From Escherichia coli (GTDB taxonomy: Bacteria; Pseudomonadota; Gammaproteobacteria; Enterobacterales; Enterobacteriaceae), in assembly GCF_030384885.1 (NCBI RefSeq), contig NZ_CP128613.1: a stretch of DNA of 64,000 bases; one strand, given 5' to 3'. Shown here in pieces: positions 11,191-15,993 of this stretch (position 1 is the stretch's first letter; every line of letters begins with the position of its first letter). The notes under the pieces are model-generated. The model searched no databases. It was not told the origin of the DNA and saw only the letters and a list, made by a program, of their open reading frames with translations. A program made the translations under genes and the position numbers.

Positions 11191-12345
11191 TTACTTCAGA
11201 CCGGCAGCATCGCGCAGCAGCTGCGCTTTGTCGGTTTTTTCCCACGGGAAATGTTCACGACCAAAGTGACCGTATGCTGCGGTTTCTTTGTAGATCGGGT
11301 GCAGCAGATCCAGCATCTGAATCAGACCGTATGGACGCAGGTCAAAGAACTCACGTACCAGCAGAGTCAGTTGTTCAGAAGGCACTTTCTCGGTACCGAA
11401 AGTTTCCACCATGATGGAGGTCGGTTCAGCCACGCCGATTGCGTAGGAAACCTGAATTTCACAACGATCGGCCAGGCCAGCTGCAACGATGTTTTTCGCG
11501 ACATAACGTGCTGCGTACGCTGCGGAACGGTCCACTTTTGATGGATCTTTACCAGAGAATGCACCGCCACCGTGACGTGCCATGCCGCCGTAGGTATCAA
11601 CGATAATTTTACGACCAGTCAGACCGCAGTCACCCATCGGGCCGCCAATAACAAAACGTCCGGTCGGGTTGATGAAGAACTTGGTTGCGGAAGTCAGCCA
11701 TTCTGCGGGCAGAATCGGCTTGATGATCTCTTCCATTACCGCTTCTTGCAGCGATTTCTGGTCGATCTCTTCAGAGTGCTGAGTGGAAAGTACTACAGCA
11801 TCAATGCCAACGATTTTGCCGTCGTCATACTGGAAAGTCACCTGGCTTTTCGCGTCCGGGCGCAGCCACGGCAGAGTGCCGTTTTTACGTACTTCAGCCT
11901 GACGCTGAACCAGACGGTGTGCATAGGTGATAGGCGCTGGCATCAGCACGTCGGTTTCATTGGTTGCGTAGCCAAACATCAGACCCTGGTCGCCCGCGCC
12001 CTGTTCCAGCGGATCGGCACGGTCGACGCCCTGGTTGATATCAGGGGACTGTTTACCGATAGCGCTCAGGACCGCACAGGAGTTAGCGTCAAAGCCCATG
12101 TCGGAATGTACATAGCCAATTTCGCGAACGGTGTTACGGGTGATCTCTTCGATGTCTACCCAGGCGCTGGTGGTGATTTCACCGCCAACTAAAACCATGC
12201 CGGTTTTTACGTAGGTTTCGCAAGCAACACGTGCTTTCGGATCCTGTTCGAGGATCGCGTCTAAAACGGCATCAGAGATTTGGTCAGCAATTTTGTCAGG
12301 ATGCCCTTCAGAGACGGACTCGGACGTAAAAAGGTGTTTTGCCAT
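11191..12345 (-). CDS. metK: S-adenosylmethionine synthetase
   Basis: 384 aa from [22 protein letters not shown]; conserved GGGAFSGKD motif. Confidence 0.95.
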
Positions 12346-12385
12346 ATTTAATATCACCTAAAGAGAATTTGGTTAGCTCAAACTG

Positions 12386-12652
12386 TTGTGTGGATTTTCT
12401 GTGGTAGCGGATCCTACCACGACTCTGCAGGTTAAAAACACTGGCAGTCTGAGTGTTAATCGGTATGGATGGATTAACATCTGGATGGCTATTTTAGGTC
12501 AGTTCTTCACCCAATTTCCACTTTTTTTTGAATCGTGTCTCATTCTGTTAAAAACGTGGCTGGAAATTTTTCCTGACAATGCTGGCATTCTGCGTATTTA
12601 TCTTTTGCAATTTTCTGCCATTGTGGGGTATAAAACGCGGCGCGCGGCTTAA
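12386..12652 (+). CDS. Small hypothetical ORF in the metK-speA intergenic region (yqgD-like; doubtful)
   Basis: 88-aa ORF without recognisable domain; position corresponds to a small K-12 ORF annotated here. Confidence 0.2.
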
Positions 12653-12864
12653 ATAAAAAGCACACGACGTTTCTTTCGTGTTGCCACTTCCAGCCGGGTT
12701 GAAATCAGAGTTTTGGCTTGTGGGTTCGTCTTAACAGGCGGCCGTGGAGGTGATACGAAATAATGAACCGTTGTCTGCTGCTTAACCTGTCTCACCGTTC
12801 TGGTGAAGATTCGTTCCCCGCACTCTGCATCTCTGCTTTGCATACCTGCCGATGTTATACCCAT
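12649..12864 (-). CDS. Small hypothetical ORF (yqgC-like; doubtful)
   Basis: 71-aa ORF on the opposite strand of the speA leader; length matches a small K-12 ORF annotated here. Confidence 0.2.
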
Positions 12865-12999
12865 CTCGGCGCTTCTCAGGATTCAAGAGCTGGTTACAGT
12901 TACTGAGGACTGAACAAGGGCGCTCTTGTAAAAACAAGAGTTTTCTCGTGGTTTCGCCGAACTGTCACACTTACGTTCGGTTATGTGTTTAATAATGTT

Positions 13000-13131
13000 A
13001 TGAAAAAGAAACCGGTTGCGCAGTCGGAGCGTCAGCATACTTTGCTGGAAAATCCGTGTGCTTATGGGTTGTTATCGCAGTCCCAGGCTGCGATAGTCGT
13101 TAACTGTTTTACACTTAATAAAATAATTTGA
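13000..13131 (+). CDS. yqgB: 43-aa small protein YqgB in the speA leader
   Basis: ATG at 13000, 43 codons [43 protein letters not shown], stop 13129-13131 just upstream of the speA start; below the size cut-off of the ORF track. Confidence 0.7.
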
Positions 13132-13139
13132 GGTTCGCT

Positions 13140-15116
13140 ATGTCTGACGACATGTCTATGGGTTTGCCTTCGTCAGCGGGCGAACACGGTGTACTACGCT
13201 CCATGCAGGAGGTTGCAATGAGCTCCCAGGAAGCCAGCAAGATGCTGCGTACTTACAATATTGCCTGGTGGGGCAATAACTATTATGACGTTAACGAGCT
13301 GGGTCACATTAGCGTGTGCCCGGACCCGGACGTCCCGGAAGCTCGCGTCGATCTCGCGCAGTTAGTGAAAACTCGTGAAGCACAGGGTCAGCGTCTGCCT
13401 GCACTGTTCTGTTTCCCACAGATCCTGCAGCACCGTTTGCGTTCCATTAACGCCGCGTTCAAACGTGCGCGGGAATCCTACGGCTATAACGGCGATTACT
13501 TCCTCGTTTATCCGATCAAAGTTAACCAGCACCGCCGCGTGATTGAATCCCTGATTCATTCGGGCGAACCGCTGGGCCTGGAAGCCGGTTCCAAAGCTGA
13601 GTTGATGGCGGTACTGGCGCATGCTGGCATGACCCGTAGCGTCATCGTCTGCAATGGTTATAAAGACCGAGAATATATCCGCCTGGCATTAATTGGCGAG
13701 AAGATGGGCCATAAGGTCTATCTGGTCATTGAGAAGATGTCAGAAATCGCCATTGTGCTGGATGAAGCAGAACGTCTGAATGTCGTTCCTCGTCTGGGCG
13801 TGCGCGCGCGTCTGGCGTCTCAAGGTTCTGGCAAATGGCAGTCTTCTGGCGGGGAAAAATCGAAGTTCGGCCTGGCGGCGACTCAGGTACTGCAACTGGT
13901 TGAAACCCTGCGTGAAGCCGGACGTCTCGACAGCCTGCAACTGCTGCACTTCCACCTCGGTTCGCAGATGGCGAATATTCGCGATATCGCCACGGGCGTT
14001 CGTGAATCCGCGCGTTTCTATGTGGAACTGCACAAACTGGGCGTCAATATTCAGTGCTTCGACGTCGGCGGCGGTCTGGGCGTGGACTATGAAGGCACCC
14101 GTTCGCAGTCTGACTGCTCCGTAAACTACGGCCTCAATGAATACGCCAACAACATCATCTGGGCGATTGGTGATGCGTGTGAAGAAAATGGTCTGCCACA
14201 TCCGACGGTAATCACCGAATCGGGTCGTGCGGTGACTGCGCATCACACCGTGCTGGTGTCGAATATCATCGGCGTGGAACGTAACGAATACACGGTGCCG
14301 ACCGCGCCAGCAGAAGACGCACCGCGCGCGCTGCAAAGCATGTGGGAAACCTGGCAGGAGATGCACGAACCGGGAACTCGCCGTTCTCTGCGTGAATGGT
14401 TACACGACAGCCAGATGGATCTGCACGACATTCATATCGGCTATTCTTCGGGCACTTACAACCTGCAAGAACGCGCGTGGGCTGAGCAGCTTTATCTGAG
14501 CATGTGTCACGAAGTGCAAAAGCAGCTGGATCCGCAAAACCGCGCACATCGCCCGATTATCGACGAATTGCAGGAACGTATGGCGGACAAAATGTACGTC
14601 AACTTCTCGCTGTTCCAGTCGATGCCGGACGCATGGGGGATCGACCAGTTGTTCCCGGTATTGCCGCTGGAAGGGCTGAATCAAGTTCCGGAGCGACGCG
14701 CCGTGCTGCTGGATATTACCTGTGACTCTGACGGTGCCATCGACCACTATATCGATGGTGATGGTATTGCCACGACAATGCCTATGCCGGAGTACGATCC
14801 AGAGAATCCGCCGATGCTCGGTTTCTTTATGGTCGGCGCGTATCAGGAGATCCTCGGCAACATGCACAACCTGTTTGGTGATACCGAAGCGGTTGATGTG
14901 TTCGTCTTCCCTGACGGCAGCGTAGAAGTGGAACTGTCTGACGAAGGCGATACCGTGGCGGACATGCTGCAATATGTACAGCTCGATCCGAAAACGCTGT
15001 TAACCCAGTTCCGTGATCAAGTGAAGAAAACCGATCTTGATGCTGAACTGCAACAACAGTTCCTGGAAGAGTTCGAGGCAGGTTTGTACGGTTATACCTA
15101 TCTTGAAGATGAATAA
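13140..15116 (+). CDS. speA: Biosynthetic arginine decarboxylase
   Basis: 658 aa from [17 protein letters not shown]; PLP-dependent decarboxylase; track ORF begins 12 nt earlier at a TTG. Confidence 0.95.
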
Positions 15117-15261: not shown

Positions 15262-15993
15262 ATGAAAAAATGGAAAGTACGTAGCGCGTTGGTGGCATTA
15301 GTCGTGCTGCTGGCCGGTTGTTCCAGTAATGCGCAGTATAATAGCAGTGCATCGGGCAATGTCGGCACCGCCTGGGGTGGGGATGTGCACTCAACGGTTC
15401 AGGGCGTATCTGCTGAACGAGCCTGGCGCGATCCGGCAGAGATGATCGTTATTAGTTATTCGACTAATGTTCCTTCCGGCTACGACCGCGTTTATAGCAT
15501 TCGTATTAACGAACTTGAATATGCTATTCGCGATGGTAATTTTAATTCTCTACCTATTACGCGGGTTTATAATTCATCAGGTAAAGAACTACGCTATATA
15601 GTCCATGCCAGAGTAGGAATGAATTACCAATTATATGTCCGCAATTACAGTCGTAACACCAACTACGAGATCGTTGCGACAGTTGATGGCCTGGATGTTC
15701 TCAATGGTAAACAAGGTTCCCTGAATAACAACGGCTATATTGTGAATGCCGGGGATTCGTTGGCGATTAAAGGATTCCGCAAAGATAAACATACCGAAGC
15801 GGCTTTTCAGTTCGCCAACGTTGCTGATTCCTACGCAGCCAATTCGGCGCAAGGCGATGTGCGTAATATCGGTGTAATCGGCTTTGCCGCCTTTGAATTA
15901 CAAGGCCCGGCGCAAAACGCGCTGCCACCGTGCTCTGGACAAGCGTTTCCGGCGGACAACAATGGCTATGCGCCGCCACCGTGTCGGAAATAG
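15262..15993 (+). CDS. Predicted lipoprotein of unknown function (accessory gene between speA and speB)
   Basis: 243-aa ORF; signal peptide plus lipobox LLAGC-SS; Asn/Tyr/Ser-rich mature part; own terminator downstream; AT-richer than neighbours. Confidence 0.7.
   Translation: MKKWKVRSALVALVVLLAGCSSNAQYNSSASGNVGTAWGGDVHSTVQGVSAERAWRDPAEMIVISYSTNVPSGYDRVYSIRINELEYAIRDGNFNSLPITRVYNSSGKELRYIVHARVGMNYQLYVRNYSRNTNYEIVATVDGLDVLNGKQGSLNNNGYIVNAGDSLAIKGFRKDKHTEAAFQFANVADSYAANSAQGDVRNIGVIGFAAFELQGPAQNALPPCSGQAFPADNNGYAPPPCRK

Follow-up and report, generated by a model that had tools for sequence, protein, structure and literature searches.

The window analysed here is a stretch of 64,000 nucleotides (nt) from the Escherichia coli chromosome (assembly GCF_030384885.1, contig NZ_CP128613.1), and all coordinates below are window positions. 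It holds a spacer of 794 nt (12346-13139) between metK and speA, the gene of the biosynthetic arginine decarboxylase, which is the entry to the arginine route to putrescine. Two small open reading frames (ORFs) in this spacer, yqgG and yqgB, are most likely evolutionarily maintained upstream ORFs (uORFs) that control speA in cis, and two further ORFs, yqgD and yqgC, are most likely non-genes. We lean towards reading the 5' leader of speA as a uORF and Rho leader like that of speF, in which yqgB would serve for coupling and yqgG, more probably than yqgB, for sensing. The annotated parts of the locus and a published link to Rho are already known; what is new is comparative evidence on which of the ORFs matter and how. 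The elements concerned are as follows.

11191-12345, minus strand: metK, which flanks the spacer
12605-12634, plus strand: speA promoter as read from the sequence, with -35 TTGCAA (12605-12610), an 18-nt spacer, -10 TATAAA (12629-12634) and then a GC-rich discriminator
12642-13139, plus strand: speA 5' leader, 498 nt, placed from the primer position of Adams et al.
12763-12906, plus strand: yqgG, a 47-codon uORF (RefSeq annotation, Pfam PF23505)
13000-13131, plus strand: yqgB, a 43-codon uORF with its ATG at 13000 and its stop TGA at 13129-13131
13140-15116, plus strand: speA, biosynthetic arginine decarboxylase, long form of 658 amino acids (aa)
13207-13220, plus strand: internal in-frame start of speA, likewise read from the sequence, with the Shine-Dalgarno (SD) sequence AGGAGG (13207-13212) and the ATG of codon 27 (13218-13220)

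The metK-speA spacer and the speA transcript

We fetched 80 loci with a SpeA identity of at least 95%, one genome per species, and extracted 79 metK-speA spacers of 633-1039 nt from about 30 genera of Enterobacteriaceae, the window and its E. coli twin included. Conservation extends over the entire spacer in this set. Within the species, 5425 of the 5426 complete E. coli genomes carry the metK-speA interval at an identity of at least 95%, and several of them have it in identical form.

The speA promoter is best read as a sigma-70 type promoter that drives a structured leader. Its -10 element ends 7 nt upstream of the 5' end of the speA 5' untranslated region (UTR) fusion of Adams et al., whose cloning primer GCGCGGCTTAAATAAAAAGC corresponds to 12642-12661 (Adams et al., 2021; PMC7815308). 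Since the primer begins at 12642, we place the speA transcription start near this position, which gives a leader of 498 nt. A previous reading of this DNA, made from the sequence only and without database searches (hereafter the sequence-only reading), had treated the whole 794-nt spacer as leader, which is too long by this measure. The transcript is termed yqgG-yqgB-speAB in the preprint version of Adams et al. A consensus promoter scan did not flag the promoter at 12605-12634; the block 12626-12645 is 92% conserved, and the promoter motif is also present in the Yersiniaceae loci described below. Divergence is about 0.2-0.3 throughout the leader as against about 0.5 at the synonymous sites of the flanking genes, and the minimum free energy of the leader has a z-score of -2.56.

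Two side observations concern this region. The discriminator ACGCGGC lies inside a palindrome, GCGGCGCGCGGC (12635-12648), that is near-invariant across genera and present in Yersiniaceae. GC-rich discriminators are often tied to growth-rate or ppGpp control. In addition, GC-rich insertions of 20-130 nt that resemble repetitive extragenic palindromic (REP) elements occur in more than eight loci of other genera, with hot spots at 12655 (after the transcription start), 12703 (in the loop of structure R1, see below) and 13110 (in the 3' part of yqgB).

yqgB is open in every spacer and ends at the speA start

The 43-codon ORF that the sequence-only reading had placed just before the speA ATG is present at 13000-13131, with 8 nt (13132-13139) between its TGA and the ATG at 13140, which thus begins 9 nt past the last base of the stop. 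Its product matches YqgB over residues 1-43 of 43 in Pfam (PF11036, 105.2 bits, cut-off 24) and in NCBIfam (NF033844, 88.8 bits, cut-off 35). The TGA overlaps the speA SD sequence GAGG (13130-13133). An ORF of 43 codons in 794 nt is unremarkable by itself, because a program-made list gives dozens of ORFs of at least 20 aa in the spacer region. What exceeds chance is the conservation of its frame.

The yqgB ATG and an open frame are found in 79 of the 79 spacers, in 12 length classes of 38-91 aa, so that the reading frame is kept throughout, in answer to the conservation check that the sequence-only reading had proposed. The frame ends at one of two TGA codons, located either at -8, within the speA SD sequence (56 genomes), or at +8, within ATGTCTGA (23 genomes). 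The stop therefore falls within 8 nt of the speA AUG in all 79, the adjacency of stop and start that is expected of translational coupling. None of the 12 length classes is in frame with speA, which would be of consequence only if yqgB is translated. In Yersiniaceae, uORFs of different sequence also end at the speA start: in Chania and Serratia sp. L9 at +8, and in Chimaeribacter with the overlap UGAUG.

We compared the retention of the frames with simulated substitutions in 29 representative genera, under one null in which positions were shuffled and another that kept the same positions and drew random bases. The second, stricter null was added because the first overstates retention: under it yqgD also appears retained, with 16 of 29 open against 3.8 expected. 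yqgB is open in 29 of 29 representatives against 8.4 expected with shuffled positions and 20.3 with random bases; these statistics, which count genera as independent and ignore insertions and deletions, are indicative only.

Selection on the peptide was assessed from the pairwise ratio of non-synonymous to synonymous differences (pN/pS), computed in frame and in the two shifted frames. The controls speA and metK gave 0.02 and 0.01 in frame and 5-10 in the shifted frames. Over the whole of yqgB the ratio is 0.85 in frame as against 0.83 and 0.74 shifted. Its variability has no 3-nt periodicity, its C-terminus is variable (pN/pS 0.85-1.03) and shows no conserved motif, and it contains one arginine codon and no run of regulatory codons. 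Most of yqgB is under no selection at the amino-acid level. The comparison with the leader peptides of polyamine genes drawn in the sequence-only reading thus holds in one respect, in that yqgB is a maintained uORF, open in 79 of 79 and ending in the speA start region, where it is positioned to affect speA. It fails in another, since the variable C-terminus, the general lack of peptide-level selection and the lack of a regulatory-codon run are unlike a sensing peptide.

The yqgB start codon was detected in vitro by INRI-seq (INRI-seq preprint). Three further features surround this start in the sequence. We saw no obvious SD sequence before the ATG; an in-frame GTG five codons earlier gives the 48-aa version in the ORF list; and a two-codon mini-ORF in another frame, ATG TTA TGA (12995-13003; in most genera ATG ATA TGA), overlaps the yqgB ATG.

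yqgG carries the conserved peptide of the leader

The set of small ORFs in the sequence-only reading was incomplete, as it omitted yqgG, which is both annotated and experimentally validated. Its product matches PF23505 with 129.9 bits (cut-off 27), and a protein with a sequential peptide affinity (SPA) tag was detected by Weaver et al. (2019). The yqgG ATG is present in 78 of the 79 spacers, the ORF being 43-64 codons long, at the same position between metK and speA, and the gene occurs in three additional loci from Yersiniaceae. The frame is open in all 29 representatives, as against 13.5 expected with shuffled positions and 19.2 with random bases.

The C-terminal part of the peptide is of particular interest:

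12841-12894, plus strand: conserved C-terminal motif of YqgG, codons 27-44, defined by pN/pS and by conservation in Yersiniaceae

Over these codons pN/pS is 0.37 in frame compared with 1.05 and 4.54 in the shifted frames, as expected of a conserved C-terminal motif, and changes at D40, S41, R42 and A43 are mostly synonymous. The motif, ...RCYTHLGA(S/T)QDSRAG, is also found between metK and speA in Chania, Chimaeribacter and a Serratia species, where the N-terminal parts of YqgG bear no relation to that of E. coli. The stop lies between 0 and 6 codons past the conserved RAG. An exhaustive search with a YqgG profile returned 19 representative clusters and no apparent relative beyond the YqgG family, unnamed matches among them being uninspected. 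The ending ...RAG recalls the SecM arrest motif; the spacing differs, and we keep the resemblance only as a lead.

The arginine codons of yqgG (R3, R12, R30 and R42) are scattered and none are in tandem, but their usage is unusual. R30 is CGA in 74 of 74 sequences, and R42 is AGG, AGA, CGG or CGA in 74 of 74 and never CGT or CGC, whereas 96.5% of the speA arginine codons in those genomes are CGT or CGC. The rare arginine codons of the motif are confined to R30 and R42, its two invariant arginines. Moreover, in E. coli as in 73 other spacers, the yqgG ORF is the sole C-rich and G-poor stretch of the leader, resembling a Rho utilization (rut) site. Between the two uORFs, yqgG is more likely than yqgB to be the sensing module.

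Conserved RNA structures of the leader and the speA start

We found five conserved RNA structures in the leader and at the start of speA.

12685-12752, plus strand: R1, anti-SD CACUUCCA (12685-12692) paired with the yqgG SD sequence UGGAGGUG (12745-12752), enclosing two inner hairpins
12912-12954, plus strand: R2, hairpin CUCUUGU-AAAA-ACAAGAG (12923-12940) followed by UUUUCUCGUGG, with a lower stem; terminator-like
12949-13014, plus strand: R3, UGGUUUC (12949-12955) paired with GAAACCG (13008-13014, yqgB codons 3-5)
13067-13105, plus strand: R4, hairpin inside yqgB, GGUUGUUAUCGC ... GCGAUAG ... UAACU, with a variable 11-nt loop
13133-13185, plus strand: R5, predicted hairpin over the speA start, 5' arm GGUUCGCU-AUG-UCUGACGA paired with UCGUCAGCGGGCGAAC (codons 11-16)

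The closing helix of R1 is invariant in 38 of 38 sequences and an inner helix has four covarying pairs; 95.5% of the alignment cells are paired, compared with at most 57% in slid controls. A Term-seq 3' end lies at about 12757, just after R1 (Adams et al., 2021; PMC7815308). In R2 (-13.2 kcal/mol), 99.8% of the cells are paired, and 22 of 67 sequences have C-G in place of a U-A pair. R3 encloses the start region of yqgB together with the hairpin CCGAAC/GUUCGG (12957-12980); its outer helix is invariant and paired in 61-62 of 62 sequences, and its inner hairpin shows A-U to G-C changes in 13 sequences and C-G to G-C changes in four. R4 (-15.9 kcal/mol, z-score -2.79) has invariant arms, and the conservation of the residues YGLLS...AIVVN in YqgB follows from this invariance at the nucleotide level. 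No match to a known RNA family was found in a search of 11800-13600 on both strands with Rfam 15 (E of 1 or less).

R5 would place the speA start within a hairpin of 16 pairs (-21.2 kcal/mol), whose 5' arm takes in the yqgB stop in either of its two positions. The synonymous sites of speA codons 1-18 are near-frozen, the entropy at position 3 being 0.16 versus 0.85 in codons 25-150 (p=3e-5). The internal start at codon 27 lies just 3' of the R5 hairpin. It is a known alternative site that yields a cytoplasmic form of SpeA without 26 residues (INRI-seq preprint).

Rho-dependent termination and a model for speA control

Work from around 1990 reportedly described feedback of putrescine on speA expression. 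The speA mRNA is twofold higher in a speB mutant with low putrescine. In reporter fusions with rhoR66S and on northern blots, Adams et al. (2021; PMC7815308) found Rho-dependent termination in the speA 5' UTR, mapped a Rho-dependent 3' end 57 nt into speA (Rho score 3.09, flagged 'uORF') and listed yqgB-speA among their candidate uORF-regulated pairs. This 3' end sits about 12 nt 3' of the R5 hairpin, and the internal speA start lies just 3' of it as well.

With the Rho dependence and the translation of both ORFs taken from the literature, and the anatomy, conservation and structures of the leader from our comparison, a model can be drawn. Ribosomes translating yqgB would finish within the 5' arm of R5, on the ribosome-binding site of speA. 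A ribosome terminating at the yqgB stop could melt R5 and so allow initiation of long SpeA, while translation of yqgB may cover the early speA RNA and prevent Rho termination there. Upstream, the conserved anti-SD helix R1 would lock the strong SD sequence of yqgG, and whether yqgG is translated, and at what rate, could decide the loading of Rho on the rut-like yqgG region. What we infer are the coupling, the melting of R5, the rut site and any ligand, whether polyamine or arginine. The internal start at codon 27 lies outside R5, and the coupling would therefore concern the long form of SpeA only.

The closest parallel is the speF leader of Salmonella and E. coli, which precedes the gene of the inducible ornithine decarboxylase. 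Translation of its uORF, orf34 (SpeFL), which carries arginine codons, counters Rho termination and unfolds a structure that hides the speF ribosome-binding site (Ben-Zvi et al., 2019; PMC6386406). The speA leader resembles it in being long, in preceding a decarboxylase gene of polyamine synthesis, in Rho termination, in a predicted hairpin over the start codon and in the conserved arginine codons of yqgG. Unlike the speF leader, it has two uORFs between which the functions are apparently split, its arginine codons are not consecutive, it has no sequence similarity to orf34, and the polyamine effect expected at speA is repression, not induction; the regulatory steps at speA are proposed by analogy. 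The mdtU-mdtJI leader of the spermidine exporter operon offers a second parallel, with a uORF that has a conserved C-terminus and a Rho-terminated leader in a polyamine-related operon (PMC7815308). For mdtU both the dependence on spermidine and the requirement for uORF translation were demonstrated, whereas for speA the same study established Rho dependence only. In the speA leader, furthermore, the conserved C-terminus belongs to yqgG and not to yqgB.

In the tnaC-tnaA leader, an arrest peptide that senses tryptophan blocks Rho loading, with arrest at the stop codon where release factor 2 is inhibited by tryptophan. yqgG is similar in being a short, translated ORF of the leader with a conserved C-terminal peptide, Rho termination downstream and a candidate Rho loading region nearby. 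An event at the yqgG stop codon is unlikely, unlike in tnaC, because the stop varies by 0-6 codons after RAG. Textbook examples of translational coupling with a sequestered downstream ribosome-binding site are trpE-trpD, with UGAUG, and rpmI-rplT. The speA start resembles these in the closeness of the yqgB stop to the speA AUG in every genome, down to the UGAUG of Chimaeribacter, and in lying in a predicted hairpin. It differs in that the upstream partner, yqgB, is a non-conserved leader peptide and not a functional operon protein, and in that initiation at a strong, independent internal start, codon 27 of speA, avoids the coupled one.

A more elaborate version, which we put forward tentatively and think doubtful as a whole, makes the leader a two-uORF sensor, the counterpart of the speF leader. 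Here the invariant C-terminal peptide of YqgG, read through arginine codons that must be rare, would make the ribosome pause or arrest according to arginine or polyamine status, the anti-SD lock and the stall would together set Rho loading, and yqgB, serving purely to bring in ribosomes that open R5, would set the ratio of the long, envelope-associated form to the short, cytoplasmic form of SpeA.

Alternative explanations

Several observations weigh against control of speA in cis by the two uORFs. The excess in frame retention is modest under the stricter null. Tagged YqgB is said to accumulate, which makes a role of the peptide possible, and codons 1-8 of yqgB, the sole part of it that looks selected in frame, have a pN/pS of 0.26 compared with 2.58 and 1.15 in the shifted frames. 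The yqgB start was not detected by Ribo-RET in vivo, according to the text of the INRI-seq preprint. R5 is unexceptional in energy relative to shuffled sequences (z-score -1.37), its lower stem is absent from the three Yersiniaceae loci, and its conservation is partly confounded with that of the protein because its 3' arm is coding sequence. Neither R4 nor R5 shows compensatory changes, since their arms never vary. The rut assignment in yqgG is based on base composition alone, and the link from translation of yqgB and yqgG to speA output is one that we infer. Finally, REP-like insertions in yqgB leave its frame open, a candidate line of evidence for frame selection that we dropped: such tolerance is weak evidence because the inserts hold few stops in any frame.

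It is rather unlikely, to our mind, that YqgB is instead a small trans-acting protein of the acid stress response whose place before speA is mere operon organisation. The NCBIfam equivalog named 'acid stress response protein YqgB', the Pfam match, the in-frame selection on codons 1-8, the phenotypes of a Salmonella delta-yqgB strain and the binding of ranitidine to YqgB reported from surface plasmon resonance (a 2026 paper) all speak for such a protein. A pN/pS of 0.85 over the whole gene and a length spread of 38-91 aa with a variable C-terminus do not, and the most conserved-looking residues, YGLLS...AIVVN, are the invariant arms of hairpin R4 with a free loop. The Salmonella data can also be read in the other direction: speA and speB mRNA fall in the deletion strain, as does arginine decarboxylase, and arginine, putrescine or spermidine can each relieve the phenotypes of the strain, all of which a cis effect on speA predicts. 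Complementation in trans is unmentioned in the main text of that paper, from which the word 'complement' is absent. In a 2025 screen for arrest peptides, overexpressed YqgB fell in the cluster with an aggregation-type heat-shock response and not in the arrest-like cluster.

We judge attenuation of the trp type very improbable. In such a scheme yqgG would encode the leader peptide, and the hairpin at 12923-12951 with its U tract would be an intrinsic terminator in competition with an antiterminator formed by the 3' end of yqgG. A conserved and covarying hairpin followed by UUUUCU, 16 nt past the yqgG stop, would suit this, as would the conserved arginine codons of yqgG, arginine being the substrate of SpeA, and E. 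coli does have a perfect 7-bp alternative pairing (12884-12890 with 12922-12928). Across the genera, this pairing is only 79.5% paired, with pairs broken in 55 of 67 and 26 of 67 sequences and no compensations, and we rejected it as present in E. coli but unconserved. Tandem arginine codons are lacking in yqgG and yqgB has a single arginine codon; in the consensus structure, part of the short U tract is paired. No Term-seq 3' end falls at the R2 hairpin among the entries listed from Adams et al. (2021; PMC7815308); the termination that has been documented lies further downstream and requires Rho. Trp-type attenuation is rejected because the competing pairing is unconserved and the known termination depends on Rho.

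The small ORFs may also be incidental, in a spacer kept for its RNA structures and DNA operator sites such as those of PurR or of metK control, which we consider similarly improbable. Most of yqgB indeed evolves like constrained non-coding sequence, several conserved helices fall within it, and the core of yqgD is a conserved non-coding block that mimics a conserved peptide (see below). A PurR site for speA is on record, and the best PurR-operator-like 16-mer of the spacer (13006-13021, minus strand, GCGCAACCGGTTTCTT) lies in yqgB codons 3-8, where it overlaps the invariant GAAACCG of helix R3; it is a weak match with 3/13 mismatches and is worse in most genera (GTT to GTC), and a scan for the full 16-mer consensus of the PurR box with up to three mismatches gave no match in the spacer. 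What decides against incidental ORFs is that yqgB and yqgG retain their ATG and open frame much more often than do their spacer neighbours yqgC and yqgD, that every length class of yqgB is out of frame with speA, that the yqgG C-terminus changes by synonymous substitutions, and that the YqgG product and the yqgB start site have been detected experimentally. Maintenance of both uORFs for control of speA in cis stays the most likely reading.

yqgD, yqgC and the metK side of the spacer

The remaining features of the spacer are the following.

12386-12652, plus strand: yqgD-like ORF, 88 aa from TTG (yqgD in RefSeq: 83 aa from the GTG at 12401)
12491-12520, minus strand: metK promoter-like site TGGAAA-18-TAAAAT, a consensus match only
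12649-12864, minus strand: yqgC-like ORF, 71 aa (Pfam PF17430)

The sequence-only reading had ORFs of 88 and 71 aa overlapping the leader on both strands. Both exist, and only the second is antisense to the leader, and to yqgG; since the speA transcript starts near 12642, nearly the whole yqgD-like ORF precedes the leader and covers the region of the metK promoter and 5' UTR. The suspicion that these two larger ORFs are annotation artefacts is borne out. Outside Escherichia, most genera have stops within these frames or no start codon for them, and their pN/pS of about 0.9 compares with 0.01-0.02 for speA and metK.

For yqgD, the start is unconserved, the open stretch ranges from 7 to 169 codons among genera, pN/pS is 0.91 overall and 0.80 in the core, equal to the shifted frames, and there was no match to a Pfam or NCBIfam family. 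yqgC is open in three of the 29 representatives, which is chance (6.1 expected with shuffled positions and 3.2 with random bases), its length varies from 2 to 140 codons, and its pN/pS of 0.88 is similar in the shifted frames. Weaver et al. (2019) found neither ribosome density nor a tagged protein for yqgC, and the ORF has been dropped from the RefSeq annotation. In E. coli RNA-seq, ExcludonFinder counts yqgG-yqgC among the divergent pairs that overlap. On the minus strand, a hairpin and T tract at 12662-12681 resemble an intrinsic terminator for the end of the antisense ('yqgC') transcript; the plus-strand form of this hairpin is the first structure of the speA leader.

The region of about 12346-12600 is best read as the metK promoter and 5' UTR on the minus strand. 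Just downstream of the putative metK promoter, the block 12446-12505 is 91-95% conserved and accounts for the pseudo-conserved 'core' peptide of yqgD. This block holds a perfect palindrome, TGTTAATC-N10-GATTAACA (12454-12479). Tandem MetJ boxes were sought with a tolerance of three mismatches, and none was found. On the other side, directly 3' of speA, an ORF of 243 aa (15262-15993) has a lipoprotein-like signal, MKKWKVRSALVALVVLLAGCSS..., and is a hypothetical protein in an identical RefSeq genome.

Implications

yqgC and yqgD should be left out of protein counts. If yqgB acts in cis, the label of 'acid stress' protein and the treatment of YqgB as a drug target are misleading. Should the two-uORF sensor prove true, the acid-stress phenotypes of YqgB and its reported targeting by a drug would be cis effects on speA. 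The comparative anatomy of the leader narrows the control of speA to elements that can be tested, namely the start and stop of yqgB, the start of yqgG, its RAG motif and rare arginine codons, the anti-SD sequence and the start hairpin.

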